Positions 12,382 to 28,827 of a stretch of DNA of 64,000 bases are shown here, in pieces (the stretch's first letter is position 1; each line of letters opens with the position of its first letter). A program made the translations under genes and the position numbers. The notes beneath the pieces are model-generated. The model had not been told where the DNA came from and searched no databases. It saw only the letters and a program-made list of their open reading frames with translations. The DNA is from an uncultured bacterium (lineage in GTDB: Bacteria; Verrucomicrobiota; Verrucomicrobiia; Verrucomicrobiales; DEV007): contig CAXBMO010000013.1 of NCBI GenBank assembly GCA_963977015.1, forward strand, positions 64,001 to 128,000, given 5' to 3'.

Positions 12382-13512
12382 GTGTCGCGCCAAGTACCAA
12401 AATTGCTTCTAATTTCCGCAATCAGTCTAATTACTGGCTGCGTAACCACTCCCCGTTATAAGGATCTATTTGAGCCTCTGAACCGGATGAACGTTTCAGC
12501 AAGTGTGCTGAACGAATTTCCGATCTCCCTGGTGGATCGACAGACTGGGAAGCCTGCGACCAACGCCAGATTGATTCTCGATACCAAACCCGAACCGATT
12601 GTGCTTCGCAGTGATTCGTCGGGTCAGGTCATGGTTCCAGTGACGAGGGATTTGCTGGCGGTAAATCCCGTCATGAGGGCTGAGCCTGCTGGGATTGACA
12701 CCGTTGTCAGCCTTACGGCAACGATTCACGGCCAAATCGAGGACGTGGAAGTCAGTTCGGCACTCGAACTCAAGAAAATTGGAGATGCAAATGTTGCGGT
12801 ATTTTCCGAACCGGAAGACGCGGCCCTTGCGCGGAAAGTCTTGGCTGAACTGATGCGGGCCCGAAAAGAAGTTCGGAGACTGCTGGGCTTGGAGCCTGAG
12901 CGCTGGGCTGTAATTGTGGGGCCAAAGCGAAAGCGCGATGTGCTTTATATGACGGTGCCCGCCTCCGGTTATGAATCAACTTGGATGTGTTTTCGCGAAG
13001 AATGGGAAACGGGTGAGTTTATGCGGACCAATGTTCATGAGTGGGTTGAATCGACGATTGAGTCGCGACTTGCGCTTTATAGTGATCCGAGAAACCGCTT
13101 CATCGGGGACGGTCTGGCCGAATACGCAAGCTGGCGTCTCTATGGCTTGGGGCCGGAATATCGGGACCGGCTTTCGCCAGCGGCCGTTCCACAAGAAACC
13201 GTTGATCTCTTGACCGCTTTTCAGGCCGTTCCGGGAAGTGCCTTTCATCGGCGCAAATTTGATCGTGGAATCGCGAAACATGGTTACAGCCCCGGTTACG
13301 CGCTGGCCTTTGTCTTTTGGCACGATCTTCTCAAGGAGCACGGCACTCAAGTTCCAGCTCGAATGGTGGCGAATCTCGCGCAACAAAGGCCCGTTACCGT
13401 TGAGCGTGCCATTGCAACGCTTGAAGCGATTACGGGTGAGCAAGGTCTGGAGGAGCAGTTGCGAAACAGCAACGTCGCAGACGCTCGCAATACCATCGCG
13501 CGACTCCGTTAG
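12382..13512 (+). CDS. Lipoprotein with a gluzincin-like metallopeptidase region and variant metal motif
   Basis: Lipobox LITGC; VHEWVE followed by FIGDGLAEYAS and GYALAFVFW. Confidence 0.6.
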   Translation: MSRQVPKLLLISAISLITGCVTTPRYKDLFEPLNRMNVSASVLNEFPISLVDRQTGKPATNARLILDTKPEPIVLRSDSSGQVMVPVTRDLLAVNPVMRAEPAGIDTVVSLTATIHGQIEDVEVSSALELKKIGDANVAVFSEPEDAALARKVLAELMRARKEVRRLLGLEPERWAVIVGPKRKRDVLYMTVPASGYESTWMCFREEWETGEFMRTNVHEWVESTIESRLALYSDPRNRFIGDGLAEYASWRLYGLGPEYRDRLSPAAVPQETVDLLTAFQAVPGSAFHRRKFDRGIAKHGYSPGYALAFVFWHDLLKEHGTQVPARMVANLAQQRPVTVERAIATLEAITGEQGLEEQLRNSNVADARNTIARLR

Positions 13513-13585
13513 GTAGGAAATCGCCGGAGGCAGGTGGAAACTCCGCTGGAAAATGGGGCGAAACTGACGTTGTTTGGCAACAACG

Positions 13586-14488
13586 ATGTCTGCCCGCCCC
13601 AAAATTGATCCGGAACTCCATCAGGCTAAAAAGCCGAGCTGGATTAAAGTGCGTTTGCCCAACAATCCGGTTTTTTGGTCCACCAAATCCCTGATTTCCG
13701 ATTTGCGACTTCATACGGTTTGCGAAGAGGCGCAGTGCCCAAACCGCTGGGAATGTTGGGGACAGGGAACGGCCACATTCATGATCGCTGGAGATCGTTG
13801 CACCCGTGCCTGTGGGTTCTGCGCCGTCAAGACCGCGAAACCTTTTGCGCTTGAAATCGATGAACCCGACCGTGTTGCTGAAGCGACTTCAAGAATGAAT
13901 TTAAATCACGTCGTCATTACAGCGGTTGCCCGTGATGACGTCGCAGATGGGGGCGCAGACCATTTTGCCAAGACCATCGAAGCGATCCGGGCGAAAAATC
14001 CGGAGCTGGTAATTGAAGTTCTTGTACCCGATTTCAACGGCAAAGATGATGCACTCCAAGTGGTCATGGATGCCCGTCCCCACATCTTCAATCACAATCT
14101 CGAAACTATCGAACGTCTCACCCCCTTGGTGAGGTCTCGGGCCAAGTATTCCCGATCGCTTGAGGTGCTGCAACGAGCCAAGGAAATGGTCCCGTCTGTG
14201 GCAACGAAAAGCGGTCTCATGTTGGGACTGGGGGAAACTGAAGAAGAGTTGTTTCAGGCGATGGATGACTTGCTGGAACATCAGGTCACCGTTTTGACAT
14301 TGGGACAGTATTTGCGCCCGTCGGAATCTCATCTTCCGGTCGTGGATTACATCCACCCCGACAAGTTCGCCGAATACAAAGTCGTAGCTGAGCAAAAAGG
14401 CTTTGTCCATGTGGCCTCGGGCCCGCTGGTTCGCAGTTCCTACCACGCGGCAGATTTCCGCCCTGAATTGGACGCGGTTTCGCAGTAA
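13586..14488 (+). CDS. lipA: Lipoyl synthase
   Basis: CEEAQCPNRWEC, CTRACGFC, VRSSYHA; ATG at 13586 (ORF track uses TTG at 13574). Confidence 0.97.
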   Translation: MSARPKIDPELHQAKKPSWIKVRLPNNPVFWSTKSLISDLRLHTVCEEAQCPNRWECWGQGTATFMIAGDRCTRACGFCAVKTAKPFALEIDEPDRVAEATSRMNLNHVVITAVARDDVADGGADHFAKTIEAIRAKNPELVIEVLVPDFNGKDDALQVVMDARPHIFNHNLETIERLTPLVRSRAKYSRSLEVLQRAKEMVPSVATKSGLMLGLGETEEELFQAMDDLLEHQVTVLTLGQYLRPSESHLPVVDYIHPDKFAEYKVVAEQKGFVHVASGPLVRSSYHAADFRPELDAVSQ

Positions 14489-14558: not shown

Positions 14559-14590
14559 AAAAAAAGCCCGGAGTCTCTCGACCCCGGGCT
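14559..14590 (-). terminator. Intrinsic terminator of the PKS-NRPS gene
   Basis: Minus strand AGCCCGGGGTC-GAGA-GACTCCGGGCT followed by a T run, about 30 nt after the stop. Confidence 0.85.
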
Positions 14591-14618
14591 CAATTAAGTT
14601 TTCTGGGCGAAGCTTACC

Positions 14619-17600
14619 CTAGGTTAGGGCGTTCTTAGGCTTGACCTTTGCAAACGTGGCCACTCGCTCGGGATCGAGGAAGTAGCGATGCATCTGGAGC
14701 CGCGCTGGTTTGAACCCGCGTTTGGCGAGATACTGGTAGTGTGCGAGAACGTCCTTTGGAGAAACCGGCCCCAACGTTGGCTTCACATCGGCTTGCATGC
14801 TGGTGAGCAAGCTGACGACGATACATCCGGTGATTTCTTTCGGATCACGCCCTGCCAACAGACTGATGTGACGGCTGTCGACAAGGGTGGAAAGTTCCTG
14901 GGCCATATTGGGCAGGTAAATCGTCTCCCTGATGTCTTCGTCCAGGTGCAGCTCACCCCCTGTTGTGAACAGGATGTCGTTGCGCTCTTCAAACCGCTTC
15001 ACAGCATCAGCAATCCGGAAACTTGGCGGGAAGCTGTAGTCAACAATGACCGTCCCGGGATTCAACTTGGAGATATCCAAGATTCCTGGGATGCTCGTGG
15101 TTCCAACGACGAAGGTCGCACCGTAGACTGAGGCTGGGAGGCCTCCGCCATTGGGATGAACCGTAATCTGGCCGTTGTAGCCGGTTTGCTTCACTTCCCG
15201 ACGAATCATGTCGAGTTGCTCAGCGCTCATGTATGGGTCGCAAAGGAGGATTTCCTTGGGATGCGGAAGCACTTCCAACGCAAGCTTGACGGTGCCCATG
15301 CCGATGGAGCGAAGGCCAACAAAGGCGACTCGTTCATCCGCGAACTTACGGTCCGTTTGCTCAAGCGTTCCCTCAATGGTCTTGATGATGGTTGCGGTTC
15401 GGGTCGCGTCACCTGTGGTGATCGCCGGAAGTTCGACACCATCGTCAAACCAGGTTTGAATCTCGCGACCATAGTCGGTTGCACTCGGCAGCATTCCCGT
15501 CAGGGAAACGGTCTTGGCTCCCATCTTGGAAGCCATTTCCAAACCGTGTGTGATGGATTTCCGTAAACGGGCTTCATCCTTGAAGATATCCAACTCGAAG
15601 GTCGGAAGAACGATCAAGCCAATCTTACCGAACGGAAGCTCATAAACGTTTCCAAGGCGTGGTTCGTGCTTGAACCACTGCCCGACCATCTCTTCGCGGC
15701 TCATTCCGGTAATGCCCGCAAAAGCATCGGGAATGCACGCGAGGGCGACCGCGTCCACTTGAGGCAGGGCAGAGCCTTCCTCGACAAACTCGACACTCAG
15801 ATGTGTCGAACTGGCAAGTTTCTCAAGATGGCTGAGATCGAACGCCGTTTCTTCCTGGCTCTCATCGGAGTGCAGATAATTGGCGAGTTGCTCGATGGTT
15901 GGAAAGCGCAGAAACGCTTCGACTGGGATGTCGCGATTGAACGCCTCACTGGCTTGAGCCAGAACCCGGACCGCCAGGAGTGAGTCACCACCCATTTCGA
16001 AGAAGTTGTCTCGAATTCCGAACTTCTCAGTTTCGAAAGCCTCGGTGAAAATATCGGCGAGGAGCTGTTCGCTCTCCGTCTGAGGCGCAACGTATTCCGT
16101 TTCCAGACCAGAACGGTCAATTTGCGGAACGGGTAGGCGTTTCCGGTCGACTTTCTTATTCGGGGTCAGAGGGTATTCGTCGACGATGCTGTAGAAAGCG
16201 GGGCGCATACTTTCCGGGAGGCGATCCGACAAATGAGCTCGAAGATCGGGAATCAATCCGTCGGTCTCACCATTCGGAATCACGTAGGCCACCAGGTTGG
16301 GTCCACCGGGTAAATCATCCCGGCGAATGACCACAGCTTGTTTGACTCGGGAAGAATCCACGAGGTGAGCTTCGATGTCGTCCAGTTCCATCCGGACCCC
16401 GCGAAGTTTGATCTGGAAGTCCGAACGGCCCAGGCACTCAAGCTTGCCGTCTTGAGTCCAGCGAGCGAGGTCACCGGTATTGTAAACCCGCTCCTTCTCC
16501 CCGTTGGGAAGCGTGATGGTTCCAAATCGGTCCATCGTCAGATCAGGCTTCTCGTGGTAGCCGCGGGCCAGTCCTGCTCCACCGATGTAGAGATTGCCCA
16601 CAAATCCGGCGGGAACCGGCTTCTCGTTATCATCGAGAATGTAAATGGAGGTGTTCGCGATCGGGCGACCAACCGAGATGGTTTCATCGCCGGCTTCGAC
16701 TTTTTCCACGGTTGACCACACGGTGGTCTCGGTTGGACCGTAAAGGTTCCAAACTTGACCCGCACGCTCCAACAGTTGGGTTGCCAGACCGCGTGAGAGT
16801 GGTTCGCCTCCGGAAAAGACTCGCAGGCTTTCCTTACCGTTCCAGCCACCTTCGATCAACATCTGCCAAGTCGCCGGAGTGGCCTGCATGACCGTGATAT
16901 CGAACTCTTCCAGCATGTGACCAAGATGGCGCCCGTCTTTGACCTCATCCCGGCTTGCAATCACCACTTCACCACCTGAAAGCAGCGGAAGGTACAGTTC
17001 GAGCAAGGAGATATCGAAGCTCAGGGTCGTGACGGCCAAAAGGCGGTCATTTTCGTCCATGCCAGGAGTGATCTGCATCGACGTGAGGAAGTTCACGGCA
17101 GCACGGTGCGAAATCTCGACGCCTTTAGGCGTTCCTGTGGAGCCCGAAGTATAAATGATGTAGGCCAGAGATTCTGCTGAAAGCTGTGATATCGAGGGCG
17201 ATTCATCGGTCGGAGTAACATCCTCCAAACAAATTACCATCCAATCGCCGTCCGGGAGTCCCTTCTGTAGCGAACGCTGGGTTACGATCACATCAGGCTT
17301 TGCATCCTGCAGCATCTGTTCGAGTCGATAGGCCGGAAACTCCGGATCCATCGGCACGTAGCAGGCACCTGACTTCAGGATTCCCAGCGTGCCGACGACC
17401 ATGTCGCAGGAACGCTCCGTCAAAAGGGCAACCGGCTGATCGGGACCAACTCCAACATCCGCCAACTTTTGCGCAAGCCCGTCAGCTTTCCGGTCGAGTT
17501 GGTTGTAGGTCAACGTGTCGCCACCGCAGCGAATTGCGATTTTGTCAGGCGTTTGAGTCACGGCATCCGCCACCAATTCATGGAGCAGACTTTCCTCTGG

Positions 17601-20600
17601 ATAGGGTGAGGAAGTATCGTTCCAATCATCGACGATCCGCTTCTCGTCTTCCTCGGACAGGAGGTTGATCTCAGAGATATGAAGATCCGGATTCGCGGTG
17701 ATCTGACTAAGAACCTGGGCGTAGAGCTTGTTGAGATAAGCAATGGTGCTCTCATCAAAAAGATCGGAATTGTATTGCCAGCATCCGTAGAGAATTCCAT
17801 CCGCTTCTTCGACCACGAGGGTGATCTCGAATTGGGCTTGGCGTAGAGTCAAATCGACAGTCTCAACGCTCATGTCCCCAACATGGATCTTGTGTCCTCC
17901 CTGGCCGATCATGAAGACTGCTGCGTCTCCACCATCCAGGCCCGGAATTTTCTCCATGCTGAACGAGACTTGGAAAATTGGCGAGCGACTTGGATCGCGC
18001 GGCACTTTCAGTTGGTCCACCAATTTGGCCAAGGGGTAGTGCTGGTTTTCCAGTGCACCGAGAACCGAGGCGCTGTTGCGAGAGACATACTCGCTGAACT
18101 TGGGATCATCCTCCACCTGGCTTCGCACGGCGACAGGATTGATGAAGTAGCCAATCATGTCGTGCAACTCCTGCTGATTTCTTCCGGCGAGAGGTACGCC
18201 AACAAGAAGATCTTCCTGGTTACAGTAGCGGTGAAGGAGAATCTCAAAGCCACTTAAAAGCGTCGTGAAAAGCGTCGCATTCTGCTGTTGGGAGAGCTCG
18301 ATCACACGCTTGGTGAGACCTTCGTCGAGCTTGAATCCGTAGGCTGCGCCGTTGAACGTTTGCACAGGAGGACGCGGGCGGTCGGTTGGTAAATCGAGAA
18401 TCAGTGGCGCATCTGCCAAATGATCTTTCCAGTATTCCAACATCCGATCACCGGTTTCACCCTCCAAGTGAGCTTGCTCCCACCGTACGAAATCGTGGTA
18501 GCGTGCCTCGATCTCCTCCCACTCCGGTTCCTTGCCGATCTTACGGGAGAAGTAACTCTCGATCAGATCGTTCATGAAGAGGGTGACCGACCATGCATCA
18601 CTGACAATGTGGTGCATGCAGAGCAGGGTGATGTGCGCATTGTCGCCGGTTTTGAACAGTTCAAGACGAACGACCGGTCCTTTCTCGAGATTGAACGGCT
18701 TGTTGGCATGCTCGACCAACAACGACTTGATTTCGTCATCAGTCAGGCTCGTTACGTCGTGCTCGCGGAAATCAATGGTTCGCCCCTTATGGATCCGTTG
18801 GATTGGAGAGCCATTCACAGTGTGGAACGTGACATCCAGCATTGGGTGGCGAGAATAGAGGCCCATGAAGGCTTCTTTCATCACTTCGATATCAATGCCT
18901 GGAGAAATCTTGCCGCTGTAAACCAGGTTGTAGGCTGGGCTTTCCGGCGCCAATTGATGGAGGAACCAAAGAGCTTTTTGACCCTCTGTAAGCGGGAATT
19001 CGAGAACTTCTTCACCAGAAAGTTCAAGCGCAGGCAAGGAGCCTGATCCCGTGTTTCCACCACCTCCGGACTCGGAAAGCTCGTCTCCCGCACTCTCCAA
19101 AAGAGTCTCAAGAACCGGGATGGCCAATTCTTTGATGTTCGGTCCGTTCAGAACCGAGCCCATGGGAACACTGATGCCGAGTTGGGATTCAACCCGGTTC
19201 ATCAATTCAATCGCCATCAGGGAGTCGAGTCCGATCTGATTGAGCGGAAGGTCCTTACTGATTTTGCTGACATCGGTTCCAAAAACTCCTGCCACTTGCT
19301 CAGACAGGAAATCGACCATCAGTCCATGACGTTTGTCTGGTGCTGCCTGGATGATTTGGCTCCGAATCGCGCCGCCTTCACCATCGCCGTCATCACCCAC
19401 CAATGCTCCATAAACGGGAGAATTTGCAATGAGCGAGGAGAAACGCGCCAGTGAATTCCAGTCGATCCGGCTTGCGGCAAGGTTGGTTGCCTTCCGTGGA
19501 AGAAAGCGCCCGAACACACTCAGCGTTTCCGGCATATTGTAAGCCTTCATGCCAAGCATATCGAGATACTGCGCGGTCTTCTCATTTCGCTCCACGAAAC
19601 CAGCTCCGGTCAACGCGCCCCAGTTGAAGGTCAGTCCGTCGCCAATTCCAATGGAGTTCCGATGTTGCGCGATCGCATCAAGGAACGAGTTGCCGGCGTT
19701 GTAATTCGATTGGCGAACCGCTCCAATTACGGTCGAAAACGAGGAAAAGGACGTAAAGAAGTCCAGCGCGATATCCTTGGTGAGGGTGTGGAGAATCCAC
19801 GCTCCCAGCATTTTCGGGTGAACCACGCGGTCAAAGCCTTCCTCGTCCAACTCAACGATATCCAGGTCATTGATGACCATCGCACCATGGACGACGCCGC
19901 CCAACGGAGCTTTTGATCCCTGAATCTTGGCGACGATTTCCTTGAGTCGCGGTTGATCGGTCACGTCAGCGCGGAGGTCGAGGACGTTCACGCCCTTCTT
20001 CTCCAGCACGGCAATATCGGCTTGCGCCTCCTCTTTCGGGCCGCTTCTGGATACCAACGCCAAATTCTTGGCTCCGTTCTTCACCATCCATTTGGCGAGT
20101 TCGAAACCGAAACCACCGGCACCACCGGTGATCAGGTAGGTGCGATCCTCGCGGAAGAGATGACCTCCCTGGGTGCAGGGACCAACTTGAATGGAAGGCA
20201 GATCGAAGGAGAGAACGTTTTTCCCGATGTGCTTGCCTTGCGCCATGTAACGAAAGGCGTCGACAACCTCGGTAATCGGGAAGGTCTTATGAGGCAACGC
20301 TTCGTAGGTTTGCGCGTAAAACTCGTCTTCCAATTCCTTGAGCATCGCAGCGACATAGGATGGCTTGGATTCCAAATGCTGGGCAAGATCAACCACATGA
20401 TAGCTGATGTTGTTCTTCAGCATCTCCATGCCAAATTTCGAGTTGCCGTAGACGTCGATCTTCCCGATCTCGACGAAACGGCCGAAACGCCGCAGGCACT
20501 GGAAGGATTTGGGAATGAAATCGCCAGCCAATGAGTTGAGGACACAATCGATCCCCTCACCGTTGGTGATTTCCATGATCTCGTCCGCGAAATCCAGGGT

Positions 20601-23600
20601 TCTGGAATTCATGACGTGATGCACACCCCAGTCGCGGAGAAGTTGACGTTTTTCGTCAGTCCCGGCTGTCGCGAAAATTTCGAGACCAAGGTTCTTCGCA
20701 ATTTGGATCGCGGCAGATCCAACGCCGCCAGTTCCGGCATGAATCAAGACGCGTTCACCTTTCTGCATGTGTGCGAGATGAACCAAGGCGTAATGGCTGG
20801 TCAGGAAAACCGTAGGCAGGGTCGCCGCCCCTTCGAACTCGAGATGATCCGGCTTCTTGAAGACCAGGTTCCGATTCACGGTGACGTAACTCCGGAACGC
20901 ATAGGGAGCCATTCCGACGACGTTGTCGCCAGGGCGAAGATCTTTGACACCTTTTCCAACTTTGACCACCGTTCCTGCGATATCATCGCCGAACCACTTG
21001 ATGTCGATCGGGTTGCCGGGATACATCCCCAAAGCTTTCATGACGTCGCGGAAGTTGATTCCGCCCGCCTTGACTTGAATTTCAATTTCGCCTTCGCCGG
21101 GCTCTCGACGCGGCGTCTCATTGAGGCTCAAGTTCTGAAGAACTCCGGGCTTATCGATTTCAAGGCGATAGCTCAGGACGGATCCATCAGGCTGAACCGC
21201 CTCCCGGGTTTTCATCGGGATTTCGTCGTTCTTGACCCGGGTCAAACGGTTTACGTGGCGAATATCACCGCGATAGGCGATTTCCAGCTCACGACCAGGT
21301 TTGGTCAATTCCCAGAAAACATCTTCAACTTCAAACGCGGACGCGTTCGCATCCAAATCGACCATTGTGATCGGCCATTCAGGATGCTCATTGTTCGCTA
21401 CCCGGACAAATCCGGTGAGAGGTGCGGCGGAAATGTCGCCCAGTTTTTCACCCTGAATTGAGGTGCGGCCCCGGGTCAAAACCAGCATTCGAGGCGCCGG
21501 CTCCGGTTTGATCCGGTTCAGCGCATGAATCATGGTCCGGAGGCTGTGGGTGCCGAGCTTTTGCGAGGCTGCGAGATCTTCCAGCGAGACGTCGTCGACG
21601 GAAGGCGCATCGAGTGTCCATGCGTGAAGGAATGCCGTGGCACGGTGACCAGCTTCACTCAGTTTGGCGAACAGTTGTTCCCAGTCTGAGGTAAGGTCGG
21701 GCGCAATCTCAAAGGAGCTGTCGCTGGTTTCCGCAAATTCTGGACCGGCGGAGACCGTCACGACACGGATCCCTGAATTGGTCAGCGAATCCGTCAGTTT
21801 GGCCGCAAAGCCAGCTTTGTCTTCCAGCAGAACATAGGTTTCCTGGGCTGGAAGGTCTTCCTCGACTTCGGAATCTTGATCCAAAGCCACAGGTTTTGGA
21901 GCTCTCGCCAAAAAGACGGCTTGTTGACATTCCTCGGGCTTCTCCGAACTCACAAAGGAGTCCACATCCTGATAGCCCAATTCGCTCAGGAGAGAAATCC
22001 ACTTCTCCCGAGGCATGAGGGCCGAATCGGGCCGGAGATCGGTGTCTTCGTAATACCACCACCCCTGAAGCAGGCCGAACAGGTTGTTCAAAGCCGTCCT
22101 TGGTTTGGTGACTTCCAGGAACATCAGGACGCCGTCTTCGGAGAGGCAGCGGGTGATGTTCCCCAGAGTATTTTTCAGGTCGCCGGTCGCGTGAACGACG
22201 TTGGTTCCCAAAATCAGGTCATAGCCTTCTACGTCGAGACCCTGGCCTTCAGGATCCTTCTCGATATCAAAGGTCGTGTATTCGACAAAGTTGTAGTCGC
22301 CAAACTGCTTCTTGGCATCCCCCAGAAACGCAGGACTGGTATCCGTGAAGGTGTATTCGCTTCGGTGAGGAGGCAGAACCGGCAAAACCGCGCGGGTCAA
22401 AGAACCTGTGCCGGCTCCGACTTCGAGCACCCGAATGGCACGGCGCTCGGGCATGGAGGCAATCAGTTCCGCGACGGCCTTCCCGACCATGTCGTTATTC
22501 GCGGGGAAGTCAGCGCCTTCCCGATAAAACCGGGTCAGCGAATCAATCGCCTGGCCGGACGGGAACAGCATTTCCACAGGGTCCACTTCTCCGGACAACA
22601 CGCCGGCGAGATTGGGGCCCGTGAGTTGCTGCAATTCGGATTCCGAGGCGAATTGCTCAAACTCAGCATTCAGCGGAGCAAGATCCACCGGGAGAGCTTT
22701 GGGCTTCTCGATGACCTCCCACTGGTCCGCGCTGACCGACTTGAGCCAACCAGAACTGGTGAGCGTGTCGAGATGGGCCCGGAAAAGTCGTGCATGGGTG
22801 TCGAGAACGCCAAGCTTCTCCTTCAACTCTTCAAACTCGAACTGGGCGCCAACCTTTGGTTTCCAGCCCAATTCAATGAAGGCGTTGATGACATACTGCT
22901 CCGCGGCAGCTTCCAACTGTTTGGCGAAGGAACTGTAATAGGCGGAGAGACCGTATTCCTCGTAAACCTGAGGAACGATCTTGTGAATTCCATCGAGAAC
23001 CTTGGAGATGGAAATATAGCCGGGAGTTCCTTCGGCATGACTTCCCTTGAGGCGTCTGGGCTCCCACTTGAACTGGTAGAAAGAGTTATCGACCTCTTCC
23101 TCAGCTTCATCCTTTTGAGCTGCCCGATCGACTCGGAAACCATTGATTTCGGCAACCGGTTCGCCGCTTTCGTCATAGACGTAAATATTGGAAATCAGGG
23201 TCTCGCGATCATCAAAGAAGATCTTGGAGTGAATCCACAGCTTACTTTCGGGAATTGGCTCACGGAGAATGCGGACGCGATTAATCGCAGCCGGCAGGTA
23301 GAAGTAATCAGAGCCCTTCGCTCCATCCGGAATGACTTGAGCCCCTTTCACGCCATGGAAGCAAGCATCAAGCACGGCTGGATGAATGCGGTAGCCTTCC
23401 ATGGACTTCAGAACGCCTTCGGGAACCTCAATTTCGGCAACCGACTCGTGCGGCTTGCGCCAGACATTCTGCAAATGGCGAAAGTTGGGGCCGAACTGGT
23501 AACCGGCGTCGAGATAGTCCTGATAGTACTCCTCGTGATCATAATGCCGTTCCATTCGATCGCGAAGCGCCTTCAAATCCGCTTTCCCGATGTTTGGAAC

Positions 23601-26600
23601 ACCGAGCTTGCGAAGTTTTCCAACGGCATTGAGATCCCATTCTTTGAGGGCATTTCCTCCAGCATTGGAATAGACTTGGAAGGAGCGGTCAGATTCGTCA
23701 AAGACCACGCGAATCGTGGGGACTTTGGACTCGCTAACGAAAAGCGCCTTCTTGGCCTCCAGTTCCTCGACACAATAGTCTTCTCCGGGGAACAGCTCCT
23801 CACAGAGGGCCAGGCCGATCTCCGCGTAACCCGCTGCCGGGAAAATGATCGAATCCCAGAAACGGTGATCCTCAAGGTAAGGGAAAAGCCGGGGATCGAG
23901 ATAAAACTCGTAGGTGGGCTTGACTCCATTTGTCCGAATACCCAGCAAAGGGTGAACGGTTGGAGAACAGCGAAGATGAGTTCCTTCTTCACTCTCGAGC
24001 CAGAACTTCTCCCGATTCCAAGGGTAGCTTGGCTGCGGAATAAAGCGGCCCGCCGCCTGACACACGGATTTCCAATCAACCTTGGTTCCGTAATTGTGCA
24101 GACCGGCCAGATTCGTCAGCATTTCCTGATTCTCCCTAGTCTTCCGTTTCAGGGAGTAGAAAACCGCGCCTTTGCGCTTCTGTTCCGCCAGACAGTCTCC
24201 GATCGGACCTTGAAGGGCAGGGTGTGGTCCCAGTTCAACAAACAATCTCTCGCCTCCGCGAATCAGATTGGTCATCGCCGGGGCGAAAAGCACGCTTTCG
24301 CGGACATTGCGCCACCAATACATTCCATCCAACTCTTCGCCCCGGAGCATTCCCCCCGTAACGGTCGAGATATAGGGAATCTTGGTGTCGCGTGGCTTGA
24401 TGCCCTTCAGCGCCTCAAGGAGTTCGTCCTTGATCGGCTCCATCTGGTGCGTGTGGAACGCGTAATTGATTCTGAGTAGGCGGACGAACTTTCCTTCGGA
24501 TTCGAGCTTTGCAGCAAGCTCCTCAAGGGGAAGCTTGTCTCCAGCCAAGGTGATCATCGTCGGGCTGTTCACCACCGCGACCTGGATCTTGTCTTCCAAA
24601 CCCTTGATGGCGGCTTTCCCTTCAGCCTCGCTCAGGCCGACGGCATACATTCTTCCCTTGTTGCCGTCACCACCGGTGTTCTCCTGCAGACGAGAGCGAT
24701 GAAAGATGACTTTGACCGCGTCCTCGAGGGTGTAAGCACCGGCAACGTAAGCGGCGGCAACCTCTCCAACGGAGTGACCAACCACTTTTGCGGGTTCAAC
24801 GCCCCAGCTCTTCCAGAGCTCGGCGAGAGCAACCTGGAGGGCAAAAATCGCCGGTTGAGCAATGTAGGTTCGATTGATGTTCGAATCCTCTTCACTCCGG
24901 GTCATCTCTTCCAACAAAGACCAATCTCCAAGCTTCCGAATCTGCTTGTCGATCTTTTCAATGGTCTTCCGGAAAACGGGCTCGGTTTCGAGCAATTCCT
25001 GGCCCATGGCCCACCACTGGGCTCCTTGTCCGGTGAAAACAAAGACAACTGGGGCTGGTTCATCGGCAGTTGTCCCGTGAACGACACCTTCGATGTCGGC
25101 GCCGGAAGTGTTTTTGGCGAAGGCACGAAGGCGGTCCCGAAGTTCTTTTGCGCTGTTTCCGAAAACGACAGCTCGTTGATCGTGCTGTTCCTTGCGAGCT
25201 CCGGCGGAATAAGTGACCTCTGCAAGGTCAAGCGATTCGTCCTCGAGCCAGGCGCGATACCGATTTGCATAAGCCTTGATCGTCGTTTCGTCCTTGCCGG
25301 AAATCGGCAGGGCGTACGGGCGATCGGCCTTTTCCCGAGGCTTCTTGGGAAGCTTTTGTTCCGGCGCGCCCTCCAAGACGATGTGGGCGTTGGTTCCACC
25401 AAATCCGAAGGAGTTGACGGAGGCAACCGGGAGGTCTCCAGGTGCCGGCTCCAGCGGAGTCAGTTCGGTGACGACCTGAAGTTTAAGCCCTTCGAAGTCG
25501 ATGTTCGGATTGGGATTCTTAAAATTGAGGTTGGGAGGAACCTTTCCTTTGTTGAGGACCAGCGCCGCTTTCACCATACCGGCGGCACCCGATCCGGATT
25601 CCAGGTGTCCCACGTTGGTCTTCACGGAACCGATCAGGCACTTGTTGTCATCGGAGCGGCCTTGGGAAAGGACGTTACCGAGGGCATTGGTCTCGATCGG
25701 GTCACCGACAGGTGTTCCCGTTCCGTGAGCTTCCATGTAGGTTACCCGTGAAGGAGACATGTTCGCCTCCTCGTAGGCTTGGACCAACATGACTTCTTGA
25801 GTTTCCTGGCCAGGAACGGTCATTGAAGACGTATTTCCGTCCTGATTGATGACGGCGGAACGCACCGTGGCGTAAATCCGGTCGTTGTTTTCGAGTGCCT
25901 TGGACAGCGGCAGAATCATCATCATCCCCGCGCCTTCGCCACGGACATAACCGTTCGCGCGATCGTCAAAGGCGAAGCATTGCCCGCTTGGAGACAGCAT
26001 CGTGGCTTTGGAGAAGCCAATCGAGGTGTCTGGAGTGAGCAACGCATTTACGCCGCCAACCAATGCGTGATCAATTGTGCCGGCCCACATGTCGCGGCAG
26101 CCAATGTTGATGGCAACAAGAGCGGAAGAGCAGGCGGTGTCCACCGAGATGGCAGGCCCTTTCAAATCCATCAGGTAGGCAATGCGATTGGAGGCAATCG
26201 AAAGCGTCGAACCCGAGTTGGTATGAACGTCCACATCGTCAGGGCTTGTCATCTGCACCTGAGCGTAATCATTCGAAGCAATGCCAACGTAGACCCCGGT
26301 TCGGGTATTCTTCAGGGCACTAGGTTGATATCCTGCATCCTCAATCGACTCCCAGGCACATTCGAGCAGCCACCGCTGTTGAGGATCCATTCGGAGAGCT
26401 TCACGAGGGGAAATTCCCCAGAACTGGGCGTCGAAATGGTCCAGGTTGGAGACAAAGCCACCCCATTTGGTGTGCATCTTTCTCGGAATCGAGGTGTCTG
26501 GATGATAGAATCGCTCTCGATTCCAGCGATTTTCCGGCACTTCGATGATTCCAGAACGGCCTTCGGCCAGCATGTTCCAAAATGACTCCGTGTCTTCTAC

Positions 26601-26678
26601 TCCACCAGGGAAGCGGCACCCAATGCCAACAATAGCAAGAGGTTCCCGGTTGGTTGGCCCAGTCGGTTGTTTATCCAT
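14619..26678 (-). CDS. Hybrid type I PKS-NRPS: KS-AT-DH-cMT-ER-KR-ACP-C-A-PCP plus a terminal acyl-ACP-reductase-like domain
   Basis: KS DTACSS/EAHGTGT/NVGHLE; AT GHSVG/YAFH; DH HPLLG/HRFWDSIIFP/HPAVLD; cMT VLEVGAGTG/NVVHAT; ER LIHAGTGGVG; KR YLITGGAGGFG/QSNYNAGN; ACP GLDSL; C HHIVSD; A YTSGSTGTPKG/YGPTE/YNTGDL; PCP GGDSL; then a roughly 380-aa Rossmann-containing tail. Confidence 0.95.
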   Translation of the reverse strand: MDKQPTGPTNREPLAIVGIGCRFPGGVEDTESFWNMLAEGRSGIIEVPENRWNRERFYHPDTSIPRKMHTKWGGFVSNLDHFDAQFWGISPREALRMDPQQRWLLECAWESIEDAGYQPSALKNTRTGVYVGIASNDYAQVQMTSPDDVDVHTNSGSTLSIASNRIAYLMDLKGPAISVDTACSSALVAINIGCRDMWAGTIDHALVGGVNALLTPDTSIGFSKATMLSPSGQCFAFDDRANGYVRGEGAGMMMILPLSKALENNDRIYATVRSAVINQDGNTSSMTVPGQETQEVMLVQAYEEANMSPSRVTYMEAHGTGTPVGDPIETNALGNVLSQGRSDDNKCLIGSVKTNVGHLESGSGAAGMVKAALVLNKGKVPPNLNFKNPNPNIDFEGLKLQVVTELTPLEPAPGDLPVASVNSFGFGGTNAHIVLEGAPEQKLPKKPREKADRPYALPISGKDETTIKAYANRYRAWLEDESLDLAEVTYSAGARKEQHDQRAVVFGNSAKELRDRLRAFAKNTSGADIEGVVHGTTADEPAPVVFVFTGQGAQWWAMGQELLETEPVFRKTIEKIDKQIRKLGDWSLLEEMTRSEEDSNINRTYIAQPAIFALQVALAELWKSWGVEPAKVVGHSVGEVAAAYVAGAYTLEDAVKVIFHRSRLQENTGGDGNKGRMYAVGLSEAEGKAAIKGLEDKIQVAVVNSPTMITLAGDKLPLEELAAKLESEGKFVRLLRINYAFHTHQMEPIKDELLEALKGIKPRDTKIPYISTVTGGMLRGEELDGMYWWRNVRESVLFAPAMTNLIRGGERLFVELGPHPALQGPIGDCLAEQKRKGAVFYSLKRKTRENQEMLTNLAGLHNYGTKVDWKSVCQAAGRFIPQPSYPWNREKFWLESEEGTHLRCSPTVHPLLGIRTNGVKPTYEFYLDPRLFPYLEDHRFWDSIIFPAAGYAEIGLALCEELFPGEDYCVEELEAKKALFVSESKVPTIRVVFDESDRSFQVYSNAGGNALKEWDLNAVGKLRKLGVPNIGKADLKALRDRMERHYDHEEYYQDYLDAGYQFGPNFRHLQNVWRKPHESVAEIEVPEGVLKSMEGYRIHPAVLDACFHGVKGAQVIPDGAKGSDYFYLPAAINRVRILREPIPESKLWIHSKIFFDDRETLISNIYVYDESGEPVAEINGFRVDRAAQKDEAEEEVDNSFYQFKWEPRRLKGSHAEGTPGYISISKVLDGIHKIVPQVYEEYGLSAYYSSFAKQLEAAAEQYVINAFIELGWKPKVGAQFEFEELKEKLGVLDTHARLFRAHLDTLTSSGWLKSVSADQWEVIEKPKALPVDLAPLNAEFEQFASESELQQLTGPNLAGVLSGEVDPVEMLFPSGQAIDSLTRFYREGADFPANNDMVGKAVAELIASMPERRAIRVLEVGAGTGSLTRAVLPVLPPHRSEYTFTDTSPAFLGDAKKQFGDYNFVEYTTFDIEKDPEGQGLDVEGYDLILGTNVVHATGDLKNTLGNITRCLSEDGVLMFLEVTKPRTALNNLFGLLQGWWYYEDTDLRPDSALMPREKWISLLSELGYQDVDSFVSSEKPEECQQAVFLARAPKPVALDQDSEVEEDLPAQETYVLLEDKAGFAAKLTDSLTNSGIRVVTVSAGPEFAETSDSSFEIAPDLTSDWEQLFAKLSEAGHRATAFLHAWTLDAPSVDDVSLEDLAASQKLGTHSLRTMIHALNRIKPEPAPRMLVLTRGRTSIQGEKLGDISAAPLTGFVRVANNEHPEWPITMVDLDANASAFEVEDVFWELTKPGRELEIAYRGDIRHVNRLTRVKNDEIPMKTREAVQPDGSVLSYRLEIDKPGVLQNLSLNETPRREPGEGEIEIQVKAGGINFRDVMKALGMYPGNPIDIKWFGDDIAGTVVKVGKGVKDLRPGDNVVGMAPYAFRSYVTVNRNLVFKKPDHLEFEGAATLPTVFLTSHYALVHLAHMQKGERVLIHAGTGGVGSAAIQIAKNLGLEIFATAGTDEKRQLLRDWGVHHVMNSRTLDFADEIMEITNGEGIDCVLNSLAGDFIPKSFQCLRRFGRFVEIGKIDVYGNSKFGMEMLKNNISYHVVDLAQHLESKPSYVAAMLKELEDEFYAQTYEALPHKTFPITEVVDAFRYMAQGKHIGKNVLSFDLPSIQVGPCTQGGHLFREDRTYLITGGAGGFGFELAKWMVKNGAKNLALVSRSGPKEEAQADIAVLEKKGVNVLDLRADVTDQPRLKEIVAKIQGSKAPLGGVVHGAMVINDLDIVELDEEGFDRVVHPKMLGAWILHTLTKDIALDFFTSFSSFSTVIGAVRQSNYNAGNSFLDAIAQHRNSIGIGDGLTFNWGALTGAGFVERNEKTAQYLDMLGMKAYNMPETLSVFGRFLPRKATNLAASRIDWNSLARFSSLIANSPVYGALVGDDGDGEGGAIRSQIIQAAPDKRHGLMVDFLSEQVAGVFGTDVSKISKDLPLNQIGLDSLMAIELMNRVESQLGISVPMGSVLNGPNIKELAIPVLETLLESAGDELSESGGGGNTGSGSLPALELSGEEVLEFPLTEGQKALWFLHQLAPESPAYNLVYSGKISPGIDIEVMKEAFMGLYSRHPMLDVTFHTVNGSPIQRIHKGRTIDFREHDVTSLTDDEIKSLLVEHANKPFNLEKGPVVRLELFKTGDNAHITLLCMHHIVSDAWSVTLFMNDLIESYFSRKIGKEPEWEEIEARYHDFVRWEQAHLEGETGDRMLEYWKDHLADAPLILDLPTDRPRPPVQTFNGAAYGFKLDEGLTKRVIELSQQQNATLFTTLLSGFEILLHRYCNQEDLLVGVPLAGRNQQELHDMIGYFINPVAVRSQVEDDPKFSEYVSRNSASVLGALENQHYPLAKLVDQLKVPRDPSRSPIFQVSFSMEKIPGLDGGDAAVFMIGQGGHKIHVGDMSVETVDLTLRQAQFEITLVVEEADGILYGCWQYNSDLFDESTIAYLNKLYAQVLSQITANPDLHISEINLLSEEDEKRIVDDWNDTSSPYPEESLLHELVADAVTQTPDKIAIRCGGDTLTYNQLDRKADGLAQKLADVGVGPDQPVALLTERSCDMVVGTLGILKSGACYVPMDPEFPAYRLEQMLQDAKPDVIVTQRSLQKGLPDGDWMVICLEDVTPTDESPSISQLSAESLAYIIYTSGSTGTPKGVEISHRAAVNFLTSMQITPGMDENDRLLAVTTLSFDISLLELYLPLLSGGEVVIASRDEVKDGRHLGHMLEEFDITVMQATPATWQMLIEGGWNGKESLRVFSGGEPLSRGLATQLLERAGQVWNLYGPTETTVWSTVEKVEAGDETISVGRPIANTSIYILDDNEKPVPAGFVGNLYIGGAGLARGYHEKPDLTMDRFGTITLPNGEKERVYNTGDLARWTQDGKLECLGRSDFQIKLRGVRMELDDIEAHLVDSSRVKQAVVIRRDDLPGGPNLVAYVIPNGETDGLIPDLRAHLSDRLPESMRPAFYSIVDEYPLTPNKKVDRKRLPVPQIDRSGLETEYVAPQTESEQLLADIFTEAFETEKFGIRDNFFEMGGDSLLAVRVLAQASEAFNRDIPVEAFLRFPTIEQLANYLHSDESQEETAFDLSHLEKLASSTHLSVEFVEEGSALPQVDAVALACIPDAFAGITGMSREEMVGQWFKHEPRLGNVYELPFGKIGLIVLPTFELDIFKDEARLRKSITHGLEMASKMGAKTVSLTGMLPSATDYGREIQTWFDDGVELPAITTGDATRTATIIKTIEGTLEQTDRKFADERVAFVGLRSIGMGTVKLALEVLPHPKEILLCDPYMSAEQLDMIRREVKQTGYNGQITVHPNGGGLPASVYGATFVVGTTSIPGILDISKLNPGTVIVDYSFPPSFRIADAVKRFEERNDILFTTGGELHLDEDIRETIYLPNMAQELSTLVDSRHISLLAGRDPKEITGCIVVSLLTSMQADVKPTLGPVSPKDVLAHYQYLAKRGFKPARLQMHRYFLDPERVATFAKVKPKNALT

Positions 26679-26905: not shown

Positions 26906-26933
26906 ATTATGGCTGGCATTTGGTCCGCGTCAA
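26906..26933 (-). promoter_or_regulatory. Candidate sigma70 promoter for the PKS-NRPS
   Basis: Minus strand TTGACG-N16-CATAAT about 230 nt upstream of the ATG; a weaker TTGCCC-N16-TAGGGT lies near 26772-26799. Confidence 0.45.
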
Positions 26934-27059: not shown

Positions 27060-28130
27060 TCAGCTCCCTACGTCGGGATAACTGCCCAGAATCTTCACGA
27101 AATTGCAATGTCCACGGAGTTCATCCAGGGCTGTTTGCAGCTGGTCGTCAGTGCAGTGTGCTGCAACATCAACGTAGAAGAAATACTCCCACTTGGACTG
27201 GCGGTTGGGGCGACTCTCAATCTTTGAAAGATTGATGTGAAAGTGGTTAAACGGCTTCAAAGCCGAGAACAACGAGCCGGGTTGGTCGCGAACGCTGAAC
27301 ATGATCGAGGTGCGATCTGAGCCCGTCGGAGGACAGGTGCGATGGCCAATTACGAGGAACCTTGTGGCATTATTCGCGTTATCTTGGATACTTTGCTCCA
27401 AAAGCTCCAAGCCGTGAAGTTCCGCCAGCAGGGCGCCTCCCAGTGCTCCTGATTCGGGATCGTTTTTCGCCAACTCGGCAGCTTTTGCGGTTGAGGACAC
27501 TTCGATCGTTTCGCCATTAAAAAAGCTTTCCGCCAGCCATCGACGGCATTGCCCAAAAACCTGCGGATGGGAATAAAGCTTGGTGATCTTTTCTTTCGGA
27601 ACTTTGGACAGCAAGTTGTTCTCGATGGGAAGGAGAATTTGCGCACAGATCTGAAGCGGAGAGGTCGCGAACAAGTCGAGGGTGTGATTGACGGCGCCCT
27701 CGGTCGAATTCTCAATGGGAACGACGCCATAGCCGGCTTTCTTGCGTTCAACCTGGTCAAAGACGTCCGCAAGGCTGCTCTGGGGAAGGTATTCGACGCT
27801 ATTTCCAAATTTGCTGATCGCGGCCTGATGGGTCCACGTGCCTTCAGGACCAAGAAAGGCGATTTTCAAATCCTCTTCCAAAGCCAGCGCCGCTGACATG
27901 ATTTCCCGGTAAATGGCTCGAATTGAACGCTCGCTCAGGCGGCCTTCGCTCTTGGCGACGAGGGCTTTGAGGAGTTTCTCTTCTCTCTCGGGCGCATAAA
28001 TTTCCAAGCCCCCCCGCTTTTTGATTTCCCCGACTTCATGCACGAGATCAGCTCTCTCGTTCAGCAAGGCGAGAAGTTGGGAGTCGATCTTGTCGATCTG
28101 AATTCGGATTTTACCCAGTGGGTCGGCCAT
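27060..28130 (-). CDS. pheA: Chorismate mutase / prephenate dehydratase
   Basis: RIQIDKID, FLGPEGT, VPIENSTEG, YSHPQ, NATRF, KIESRP ACT domain; start placed at MADPL. Confidence 0.96.
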   Translation of the reverse strand: MADPLGKIRIQIDKIDSQLLALLNERADLVHEVGEIKKRGGLEIYAPEREEKLLKALVAKSEGRLSERSIRAIYREIMSAALALEEDLKIAFLGPEGTWTHQAAISKFGNSVEYLPQSSLADVFDQVERKKAGYGVVPIENSTEGAVNHTLDLFATSPLQICAQILLPIENNLLSKVPKEKITKLYSHPQVFGQCRRWLAESFFNGETIEVSSTAKAAELAKNDPESGALGGALLAELHGLELLEQSIQDNANNATRFLVIGHRTCPPTGSDRTSIMFSVRDQPGSLFSALKPFNHFHINLSKIESRPNRQSKWEYFFYVDVAAHCTDDQLQTALDELRGHCNFVKILGSYPDVGS

Positions 28131-28134
28131 GTGG

Positions 28135-28827
28135 TTATTCGGATACCTCCGTTGGTTGAGTTGGTTGGACTTCGGCAAGTTCCAGCTGTTGTTCTTGCTG
28201 GTCGCTTTTGCTTCCGTCTTCGTTTTCGGCTCCCGGAAGCTTTACTGATCGCAATTCGGCTGCATTTGGGAGGTCGTCCACCGTTTTGATGCCGAAATGC
28301 TCCATAAAAAGCTCGGTGGTCCCATACAGGAGCGGCCGGCCGGGCAAATCGGCTTTTCCGACAATCGTGATCAAGCCGCGATCGATAATCTTATTCATTA
28401 CGCCATCGACACTCACCCCGCGAACCGCCTCGATGTCGGATTTGGTGATGGGCTGCCGATAGGCAATGATGGCGAGTGTTTCGAGAGCTGGCGGGCTGAG
28501 TTTGGCGGGTTTGTGGCCGGGAAAAAGCTCGCGAATCCAGTCTGCGAATTCCGGTTGTGAAGCCATTCTCCAACCACAAGGGCCTTCCACGATCCGAAAC
28601 GCCCGCCCCGTCTGCTCGTATTCCAGGTTGAGAGTGCTGATCGCCGTTTCTACGTCTTTTGGTTTTGCCACGAAACCGACAGATGAGCTGCTGCCGTTTT
28701 CTGGCGGATCAGAATCCGGCGCGTCTTCATCTTCGAGCTTTCGCTGAATGCACTGGGCCAATTCTTTGGCAGAAATGGGTTCAGGGCAGGCAAAAAGCAG
28801 CGCTTCGATGATGGTTTTCAGCTCCAT
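28135..28827 (-). CDS. scpB: SMC-Scp complex subunit ScpB
   Basis: IEALLFA, LETLAIIAYRQPIT, VRGV, GRPLLYGTT; start placed at MELK. Confidence 0.95.
   Translation of the reverse strand: MELKTIIEALLFACPEPISAKELAQCIQRKLEDEDAPDSDPPENGSSSSVGFVAKPKDVETAISTLNLEYEQTGRAFRIVEGPCGWRMASQPEFADWIRELFPGHKPAKLSPPALETLAIIAYRQPITKSDIEAVRGVSVDGVMNKIIDRGLITIVGKADLPGRPLLYGTTELFMEHFGIKTVDDLPNAAELRSVKLPGAENEDGSKSDQQEQQLELAEVQPTQPTEVSE

Follow-up and report, generated by a model that had tools for sequence, protein, structure and literature searches.

Hybrids of polyketide synthases (PKS) and nonribosomal peptide synthetases (NRPS), NRPS modules for glycine and terminal amidation domains (TADs) are already known, and a cluster of TADs from Verrucomicrobiota is described in the main text of a preprint (Rankin et al., bioRxiv 10.1101/2024.10.28.620694). 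Here we describe a gene that unites these elements in a single protein of 4019 amino acids (aa). It is located on the minus strand at positions 14619..26678 of a 64,000-nucleotide stretch of a contig from an uncultured bacterium of the Verrucomicrobiales; this whole stretch is called the window below. The product of the encoded synthase is likely a methyl-branched N-acyl-glycine derivative, which would leave the enzyme as an aldehyde or alcohol, the outcome towards which we lean, or as a primary amide.

The closest described relatives of the terminal domain come from three cyanobacterial pathways, in which the TAD-ended NRPS modules CarI, VatR and HcaD lead to the primary amides carmabin, vatiamide and hectoramide, respectively. 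The TADs of these pathways are 85-95% identical, and the structures 9E4S and 9E4X represent the TAD from the carmabin biosynthetic pathway. According to the main text of the preprint, the CarI TAD is NAD(H)-selective, its Asp2102 excludes NADP and CoA, and NAD is bound beside the catalytic Cys, where Asp2170 stacks on the nicotinamide. Cluster 3 of the sequence similarity network (SSN), 'mostly Verrucomicrobiota', invariantly carries Tyr in place of Asp2170. The known TAD pathways keep the last amino acid in the product; in other pathways, amidation that depends on glycine is well established. The cyanobacterial acyl-ACP reductase (AAR) reduces carrier-bound thioesters to aldehydes (Rankin et al., bioRxiv 10.1101/2024.10.28.620694). 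Similarly, the thioester reductase (TR) domain of TamH is described as an NADH-dependent domain which frees aldehydes from carrier-bound acyl chains.

The main text of the preprint does not describe the megasynthase that a TAD of this cluster ends; its supplement may show such an architecture. A literature search for follow-up work on TADs gave solely the preprint itself, and no paper describing the present synthase family was found, by titles and abstract openings, among the papers listed for Verrucomicrobia PKS-NRPSs or sulfotransferases. What is new here is the recognition of a single-protein synthase, composed of a PKS of the highly reducing (HR) type, a glycine NRPS module and a TAD, as a conserved family of Verrucomicrobiales and Opitutales, and of the sulfotransferase and resistance-nodulation-division (RND) genes that recur beside it.

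Results

Domain architecture of the synthase

The gene is a single unbroken open reading frame (ORF) of 4019 codons without a stop. The following parts were distinguished in it:

14619..26678, minus strand: entire ORF of 4019 aa, encoding the hybrid type I PKS-NRPS with a TAD domain at its end
25170..26645, minus strand: ketosynthase (KS), residues 12-503; PF00109, PF02801, PF16197; Cys183 (in DTACSS), His318, His358
24087..25046, minus strand: acyltransferase (AT), residues 545-864; PF00698; GHSVGE and YAFH
23109..23954, minus strand: dehydratase (DH), residues 909-1190; PF21089, PF14765; His938, Asp1104
21963..22478, minus strand: C-methyltransferase (cMT), residues 1401-1572; PF08242, PF13489; S-adenosylmethionine (SAM) motif LEVGAGTGS, His1496, Glu1522
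20211..21098, minus strand: enoylreductase (ER), residues 1861-2156; PF08240, PF00107, PF13602; NADPH motif HAGTGGVG
19608..20141, minus strand: ketoreductase (KR), residues 2180-2357; PF08659; GGAGGFG, Tyr2326, Asn2330
19098..19301, minus strand: acyl carrier protein (ACP), residues 2460-2527; PF23297, PF00550; Ser2486 in GLDSLM
17634..18998, minus strand: condensation (C) domain, residues 2561-3015; PF00668, E 1.6e-98; HHIVSD at 2689-2694
16152..17567, minus strand: adenylation (A) domain, residues 3038-3509; PF00501, PF13193; pocket DILQFGLVWK
15873..16040, minus strand: peptidyl carrier protein (PCP), residues 3547-3602; PF00550; Ser3566 in GGDSL
14646..15770, minus strand: TAD-type terminal domain with an AAR-like fold, residues ~3637-4011; phmmer, AF2 model and Foldseek

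The ten domains from KS through PCP were matched by Pfam, all well over the gathering scores, and the presence of KS, AT and ACP together with C, A and PCP on one polypeptide makes the protein a type I PKS-NRPS hybrid. The KS begins at residue 12, and the protein is therefore devoid of a loading didomain, an acyl-AMP ligase domain and an N-terminal docking sequence. A preliminary description of the locus had recognized one PKS module with the full reducing set and a cMT, fused to one NRPS module and lacking a loader, and Pfam confirmed this arrangement. The domain list given there was correct as far as the PCP but missed an additional C-terminal domain formed by the ~410 residues that follow (~3610-4019).

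Homology of the terminal domain to the CarI TAD

The C-terminal 424 aa matched no Pfam family at E values up to 10, and the only NCBIfam match, to the N-terminal part of PigE, was weak (E 3.3e-10) and far under the cut-off of that model. A phmmer search of the PDB with the same residues retrieved the CarI TAD (9e4s_A, E 3.1e-68; 9e4x_A, E 3.7e-68) in an alignment spanning ~375 residues (query 42-416 to chain 39-411), and no other PDB chain fell under E 0.4. The AlphaFold2 (AF2) model of the domain, which was built on 32 family sequences (pLDDT 87.3, pTM 0.88), has the two-lobed TAD fold, in which the N-terminal lobe resembles a macrodomain and the C-terminal one is a Rossmann lobe. Foldseek gave TM scores of 0.84-0.89 to ten CarI TAD chains at 34-35% identity, 0.60-0.63 to the cyanobacterial AAR and at most 0.35 to all other listed folds. 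The domain is placed straight after the PCP, which stops at residue 3602, and ends the protein. The preliminary description had likened the protein to the fungal layout KS-...-T-R, which implies a terminal R domain, and had named the products that a reductive release would give. By phmmer and Foldseek, the domain is a TAD homologue without a Pfam family and not a reductase of the short-chain dehydrogenase/reductase (SDR) type; reductive release is therefore not implied by the layout.

AAR (6JZQ, 6JZU) and the TR domain of TamH resemble the domain in their two-lobed fold and in a catalytic Cys that is turned towards the nicotinamide, and both off-load carrier-bound thioesters as aldehydes. Unlike AAR, which is a stand-alone, NADPH-using enzyme, it is fused to the megasynthase, is only 14-15% identical to AAR and possesses the Asp that excludes the 2'-phosphate; the N-terminal lobe of the CarI TAD also differs from that of AAR and dimerises. 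No AAR model was among the NCBIfam matches of the terminal domain. The domain may act like AAR but does not belong to the AAR family.

Conservation was followed in a family alignment of 76 proteins of 3900-4110 aa including the query. The relatives had been gathered with the C-terminal region as the query (84 matches among 1709 scored candidates), and two smaller alignments, A1 (22 sequences) and A2 (32 rows), were also used. Cys3952, which corresponds to CarI Cys2238, the TTG motif at 3754-3756 (window 15410-15418) and Asp3814, which aligns with the NAD-selecting Asp2102 of CarI, are fixed in 76/76. The P-loop reads GLRSIG at 3788-3793, so that Arg3790 (window 15309-15311) replaces the second Gly of GxGxxG. 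This position is occupied by Gly in 70, Arg in 3 and Lys in 1 of the 76 proteins; in A2, two rows have Arg (window, L002), two have Lys (L003, L005) and the remaining 28 have Gly. The loop VDYSFPP with Tyr3881 (window 15023-15043) stands where CarI has Asp-Asp-Ser-Gly-cisPro. This is in agreement with the published description of Tyr in SSN cluster 3, and since the change from Asp to Tyr is a reported trait of the Verrucomicrobiota cluster, it is a sub-family trait and no ground for excluding the domain from the TADs.

The two positions in which the window differs from CarI near this site co-vary between the orders in A2. All nine Opitutales rows have TTGH and VDDSFPP and are CarI-like at both positions, whereas VDYSFP was found in 23/23 Verrucomicrobiales-type rows, of which 21 have TTGD and 2 have TTGN. 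This suggests a swapped pair of residues which would be situated near the nicotinamide. From 1.84 billion proteins, the family TAD profile collected 1281 representative clusters at E <=1e-3 and 553 at E <=1e-30. Of the 150 best profile hits, 146 have a TAD match that ends <=50 residues from the C-terminus (exceptions P0154, P0164, P0197 and P0229), and this almost exclusively C-terminal position fits a role in chain release.

Catalytic motifs of the PKS and NRPS modules

All catalytic motifs checked are fixed in the 76 family members, which confirms the earlier impression that the PKS and NRPS motifs are intact. This applies to DTACSS, HGTGT and GHL of the KS, GHSVGE and Arg661 of the AT, His938 of the DH, LEVGAGTGS of the cMT, HAGTGGVG of the ER, GGAGGFG, Tyr2326 and Asn2330 of the KR, GLDSLM of the ACP and HHxxxD of the C domain. 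The YAFH motif of the AT is conserved as well. Both carrier-protein serines are invariant, and the Asp of the PCP motif GGDSL is present in 75/76. In A1, His938 together with Asp1104 of the DH, and His1496 together with Glu1522 of the cMT, which we take to be its catalytic dyad, are fixed in 22/22. None of the domains with checked motifs looks decayed, and this includes the ER, a domain that has usually lost its activity in the PKS-NRPSs of fungi.

The AT positions GHSVGE and YAFH align with GHSQGE and YASH in the methylmalonyl-specific ATs of DEBS, the best-aligned solved ATs. As a rule, HAFH is associated with malonyl and YASH with methylmalonyl specificity. The two diagnostic residues thus give moderate support to a prediction that the AT selects malonyl; with malonyl-type residues in the AT, the branch methyl would have to come from SAM.

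Predicted glycine specificity of the A domain

The pocket DILQFGLVWK is composed of residues from FDISLLE, MQATP, VFSGGE, NLYGPTE and TETTVWS and of the invariant Lys3509, the positions being assigned by the PheA numbering; it had been read correctly by eye in the preliminary description. When the pocket segment 3200-3360 alone was compared with PDB chains, the best scores were 146.8 bits to 5u89_A (DhbF module 1) and 137.2 bits to 4zxh_A (AB3403), followed by 116 bits to 8www_A and <=74 bits to the other 30 listed chains. The corresponding codes in the aligned structures are DILQLGLIW in DhbF module 1 (5u89) and DILQLGVVW in AB3403 (4zxh), and 9/10 pocket positions match one or the other. The pocket is therefore of the DILQLG(L/V)(I/V)WK type of glycine-activating A domains. 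According to a review, 5U89 is the A-PCP of DhbF module 1, the two modules of DhbF load glycine and threonine, and 4ZXI is AB3403 in complex with AMP and glycine.

At position 299, 57/76 family members have Phe and 19/76 have Leu, and the remaining code is nearly fixed, with Met at 322 in two members and Ile at 330 in two. Pocket code and scores bear out the previously proposed glycine type, and activation of glycine is a well-supported prediction for this A domain. LgrA, which with 539 bits seemed to be the closest A-domain relative, was rejected because this score sums two A domains (262 and 275 bits).

Relation to known PKS systems

The affinity of the KS-AT region was measured against PDB chains. 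In decreasing order, it scored 704 bits with the bacterial 'putative polyketide synthase' 7zma, 678 with CurL, 649 with PikAI, 646 with DEBS, 598 with MAS, 487 with the fungal PsoA, 471 with LovB and ~370-384 with animal fatty acid synthase. The closest PDB match of the modifying region was MAS (411 bits), the cMT was closest to CurJ (233 bits, vs 132 bits to the fungal citrinin cMT) and the ER to CurK (268 bits) and JamJ (218 bits). 

The protein had been called fungal-style, and this holds for the domain order, KS-AT-DH-cMT-ER-KR-ACP-C-A-T, but not for the sequence affinity, which is bacterial. The fungal PKS-NRPSs (PsoA, 9X29; LovB, 7CPX) are alike in domain order and in having a terminal release domain, and PsoA (4007 aa) is of similar size. 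They differ in their lower affinity (487 and 471 vs 598-704 bits), so fungal HR-PKSs are not the closest relatives among the solved structures; in addition, the host of the window gene is bacterial, its ER motif is intact, and a TAD replaces the SDR-type reductase (NAD_binding_4) or Dieckmann end.

MAS and the MAS-like mycobacterial PKSs (5BP1, 5BP4, 9D2Z) resemble the synthase as loader-less KS-AT-DH-ER-KR-ACP proteins with methyl-branched saturated acyl products, and Pks2 of sulfolipid-1 was among the top-scoring NCBIfam models, under the cut-off of that model. MAS-type enzymes start from preformed fatty acyl primers and iterate on them. In contrast to the window protein, MAS uses methylmalonyl-CoA as the source of its branches and lacks a cMT, an NRPS module and a TAD. 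CurJ, CurK, CurL and JamJ of the curacin and jamaicamide pathways are the nearest solved relatives and share the cis-AT module layout with a cMT; they are, however, non-iterative modules in long lines with upstream partners.

The modules CarI, VatR and HcaD (9E4S, 9E4U, 9E4X, 9E50, 9E56) share the terminal C-A-PCP followed by a domain of ~400 aa, the TTG motif, the NAD-selecting Asp and a Cys at the catalytic position. Their lines are long and multimodular, whereas the window line consists of a single protein with a single PKS module and loads glycine. The CarI TAD also differs in having DDSGP instead of DYSFP, TTGH instead of TTGD, and the second P-loop Gly instead of Arg.

Distribution of the family

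When one genome per species was scanned for matches to the family alignment, at least 601 stretches were obtained, 551 of which were confirmed; the best 80 are the loci L001-L080. Among these 80, 46 match to about residue 4009 or beyond at 48-85% identity, and these full-length loci are labelled Verrucomicrobiota, Verrucomicrobiales, Akkermansiaceae, Opitutales or 'Candidatus Moanabacter'. A further 19 Verrucomicrobiota loci end at contig edges, the closest of them being L001 with 92% identity. Twelve Planctomycetota loci match part of the protein only, and three others are truncated (two Planctomycetota, one Acidobacteriota).

A KS-AT tree of 70 rows, from which 10 loci with stops or short sequence were left out, was calculated by a quick IQ-TREE run (LG+G4, SH-aLRT support only) and is unrooted, with several long branches. 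The window groups with L001 (support 97) and then with L002 (100) within a seven-row clade, the other rows of which are labelled Verrucomicrobiales or Verrucomicrobia/Verrucomicrobiota. This placement assigns the window to a bacterium of the Verrucomicrobiales. The Opitutales form one clade (100), as do the Planctomycetota rows (99); the gene tree broadly tracks taxonomy.

The Planctomycetota relatives share the PKS module and differ in the ending, which is C-A-PCP followed by a thioesterase (TE) in L050, C followed by an NAD_binding_4 reductase in L058 and L053, ACP followed by a reductase in the Novipirellula locus L062, and C alone in L043. One PKS chassis is thus combined with several off-loading solutions across two phyla. 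L064 also belongs to the Planctomycetota relatives with differing release modules.

The loci L005, L017, L025, L059 and L076 come from environmental metagenome-assembled genomes (MAGs) labelled Akkermansia or Akkermansia muciniphila. The tree groups them with marine and freshwater Verrucomicrobiales, and the labels look like loose taxonomy. The record of L022 is labelled as that of an isolate and not of a MAG. In two other MAG loci, L006 and L073, the frame bearing the TAD is open for just 2547 and 1332 codons despite a full-length tblastn match, which points to a frameshift, to a split gene or to faulty assembly.

Sulfotransferase and transporter genes beside related synthases

The 458 flank ORFs of the 46 full-length loci were clustered. 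A PF13469 sulfotransferase gene (369-387 aa) adjoins the synthase gene in 15 of these loci. In 14 of them (L030, L036, L051, L054, L061, L063, L065, L069-L074 and L080), it is located 21-107 bp downstream on the same strand, and in L014 it lies divergently upstream; in 3 or 4 of the 46 loci, the downstream sequence is too short for a judgement. The positive loci comprise 13 of the 14 full-length rows of a clade uniting the Opitutales with one Verrucomicrobiales subclade, in addition to L014 and to L073, which is outside the tree. The occurrence of the sulfotransferase gene in three differing flanking contexts argues for a functional linkage with the synthase. Its nearest solved relatives are weak matches: 2zq5 and 2z6v (~5e-8 to 9e-8), presumably Stf1-type mycobacterial enzymes which the database labels only 'putative uncharacterized protein', CurM (8e-8) and the olefin-synthase sulfotransferase (1.5e-5).

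An AcrB-type RND gene (1005-1053 aa, weak MMPL match) was found divergently 440-794 bp upstream of the synthase gene in 10 Opitutales loci (L030, L063, L065, L069-L074 and L079). The encoded transporter is a possible exporter of the synthase product.

Two further candidate markers of the release chemistry were considered. Tyr3881 as a marker of a reductive sub-family was weakened by the Opitutales orthologues, which have Asp and are also accompanied by the sulfotransferase gene; as this gene adjoins synthases with both TAD types, Tyr alone is not readable as a chemistry switch. A FabG-like SDR gene 97-180 bp upstream in L036, L051, L054 and L080 was set aside as an aldehyde-reducing partner because it is paired with an MR/MLE enolase-type gene, and the two appear to resemble a sugar-acid catabolic pair.

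Surroundings of the gene in the window

The following elements flank the synthase gene:

27060-28178, same strand, upstream: chorismate mutase/prephenate dehydratase (pheA-like) gene
26906..26933, minus strand: promoter-like site TTGACG-16-CATAAT, ~228 nt ahead of the ATG, within the gap of 381 nt that follows the pheA-like gene
14564..14591, minus strand: terminator-like hairpin beginning 28 nt past the stop codon, with a 12-pair stem, 8 GC pairs and a T-run
13574-14488, convergent, downstream: lipoyl-synthase-like radical SAM gene

The promoter-like site and the terminator-like hairpin are consensus matches, each found once vs 0.7 expected in shuffles; neither count is higher than shuffles give, and for the promoter this is weak evidence. 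Beyond the pheA-like gene follow, in order, genes for ScpB, an aminotransferase, a D-Ala-D-Ala carboxypeptidase and a TPR protein. The window neighbours recur only in the two closest loci among the best 80, L001 and L002, and a conserved synteny past these two was rejected. The synthase gene is self-contained and probably monocistronic.

No loader was found among the flanking genes, and the 10 small ORFs (55-144 aa) and 3 larger Pfam-less ORFs in the region 8000-35200 include no carrier protein, MbtH-like protein, acyl-AMP ligase or phosphopantetheinyl transferase. A 720-aa AMP-binding enzyme is encoded at 48006-50168 (minus strand), 21 kb from the synthase gene. The 376-aa ORF at 12382-13512 (plus strand), between an SDR gene and the lipoyl-synthase-like gene, belongs to no Pfam family; its sole match, to a PKS docking model, stays below the threshold (E 0.088), and it has a counterpart in 0/80 related loci.

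Farther away, the segment 3661-8525 (plus strand) carries a FecR-domain ORF and, after it, a gene for a 1451-aa protein with a two-partner secretion (TPS) domain, a large secreted exoprotein of the TpsA type. The segment 44010-47928 (minus strand) carries a Fur-family regulator gene and then genes for a SufC-like ABC ATPase, SufB and SufD, an operon of Fe-S cluster assembly.

Discussion

We propose that the protein is a lipo-amino-acid synthase which makes a methyl-branched N-acyl-glycine derivative. With reductive release included, this reading is put forward tentatively. Its parts are not equally firm. The assembly logic, that is, the elongation by the PKS module and the coupling to glycine, is quite probable, whereas reductive release, for which analogy speaks, is a preference that may well have to be given up.

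In the first of four steps, the KS, AT, DH, cMT, ER, KR and ACP, all catalytically intact by sequence, would act together, so that each round would give a fully reduced, alpha-methylated C2 unit. In the second, the KS would be primed directly by a fatty acyl thioester of primary metabolism, which is expected because a loader, an N-terminal docking sequence and a partner PKS are missing. One or a few extensions may follow, as in MAS, or the chain may be built de novo by iteration from acetate. In the third, the C domain would couple the ACP-bound acyl chain to PCP-bound glycine, the amino acid predicted from the pocket, to form N-acyl-glycyl-S-PCP. In the fourth, the TAD would take the chain onto Cys3952 beside the nicotinamide cofactor and off-load it, as homology and fold suggest. 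Our lean is towards an NADH-dependent reduction to N-acyl-aminoacetaldehyde and then to an alcohol of the N-acyl-ethanolamine type, whose hydroxyl might be the point of sulfation in the related lineages with an adjacent sulfotransferase gene.

Since TADs have the fold of thioester reductases, an aldehyde or ethanolamine-type product is a possible outcome. We lean towards reduction because this fold family has proven thioester reductases in AAR and the TR domain of TamH, because a gene resembling O-sulfotransferases adjoins the synthase gene in relatives, and because the sister PKSs of Planctomycetota end in canonical reductases.

Several findings weigh against this reading. Primary amides are the only product correlation for TADs in the main text of the preprint. 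According to the same text, neither the CarI nor the VatR TAD gave any release in vitro, whether NAD(H), metals, ammonia or any of the amino acids were supplied; its authors attributed the missing turnover to the want of authentic substrates, and one of the options they list is a reduce-then-reoxidise route (Rankin et al., bioRxiv 10.1101/2024.10.28.620694). A tblastn search of the 64-kb window detected no sulfotransferase homologue, so that the link to sulfation derives from relatives with 48-57% identity. The Opitutales orthologues whose TADs are CarI-like in TTGH and VDDS have the sulfotransferase as well. Arg at the second Gly of GxGxxG (3/76; 2/32 in A2) could impair cofactor binding. As for the source of the branches, the AT segment as a whole is closest to the methylmalonyl-specific ATs of DEBS (134 bits, vs 97 bits to CurL).

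One alternative concerns the building of the chain. The protein could be a true fungal-like iterative HR PKS-NRPS which primes itself from malonyl/acetyl, performs many rounds with programmed methylation and joins a poly-methylated chain to glycine. Such a mode is possible, on balance rather doubtful. A single module with a single ACP, no loader and the full reducing set with a cMT is what this mode would use, the gene is autonomous across varied genomic contexts, and bacterial iterative single-module PKS-NRPSs exist in the polycyclic tetramate macrolactam synthases. However, the sequence affinity of the KS-AT and of the modifying region is higher to bacterial PKSs of the modular and MAS types than to the HR-PKSs of fungi. 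Enzymes of the MAS type use ready-made fatty acyl chains as starters, and the round count is not readable from sequence.

The second alternative concerns the release. Attack of ammonia or an equivalent on the Cys3952 thioester would give an N-(methyl-branched acyl)glycinamide. We regard such an amidation as somewhat unlikely taken by itself, and nearly as likely as reductive release. It agrees with the only correlation known for TADs, the primary amides of the three cyanobacterial pathways, with the NAD(H)-selecting Asp of CarI, which is fixed here as Asp3814 in 76/76, and with the CarI-type TTGH and DDS kept in the Opitutales orthologues. On the other hand, the main text of the preprint describes an amidation which has never been reconstituted, names no nitrogen source and gives three precedents whose TADs are 85-95% identical (Rankin et al., bioRxiv 10.1101/2024.10.28.620694). 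We count these three as one data point. A glycinamide would also offer no obvious hydroxyl to the sulfotransferase encoded beside 15/46 related synthases, and the fold and catalytic Cys are those of proven thioester reductases.

The Arg in the P-loop raises the question of whether the TAD of the window is active at all. An inactive TAD would leave N-acyl-glycine as the product of spontaneous or trans hydrolysis, and Arg at the second Gly in the window and 2 other members of the 76, like Lys in L003 and L005, speaks for such a loss. This is very improbable, since the remaining TAD signature residues are intact, the ORF of 4019 aa is unbroken, and the substitution is common to relatives at 85-94% identity and so is maintained under selection.

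Hardly credible at all is a sacrificial glycine, by analogy to myxothiazol and peptidylglycine amidation, in which an NAD-dependent oxidation of the C-alpha-N bond would give a primary fatty amide and glyoxylate: the glycine-type code kept in all 76 members, the glycine-dependent amidation known in other pathways and the NAD bound beside the catalytic Cys of the TAD would suit it, but the known TAD pathways described in the main text of the preprint retain the last amino acid (Rankin et al., bioRxiv 10.1101/2024.10.28.620694), Pfam found no monooxygenase or comparable domain in the protein, and the idea is pure conjecture without a homologous precedent.

Whichever release applies, the synthase family offers a minimal system for TAD chemistry, with one protein and a predicted substrate, a simple fatty-acyl-glycyl thioester, which is easily synthesised, so that the question of amide or aldehyde is directly testable. 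A wider scenario, in which the products of these synthases are a hitherto overlooked lipid class, methyl-branched and derived from glycine, which is ancestral to a large part of the Verrucomicrobiota and exported by the RND pump in Opitutales, and in which TADs are at root Cys-dependent thioester reductases, is speculative and on present evidence unlikely. If it were true, N-acyl-ethanolamine O-sulfates, structural analogues of N-acyl-taurines, or N-acyl-glycinamides would be the candidate products, and 'amidation' in the TAD superfamily (1281 representative clusters) would be a later elaboration of thioester reduction.

The conservation of the synthase over its full length, its fixed motifs and its unrelated genomic contexts point to a lineage-wide physiological product and not to a sporadic antibiotic. 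The recurring sulfotransferase and the RND pump of Opitutales suggest an exported sulfated lipid, and the lineage-wide product might be a membrane or surface lipid or a signal.

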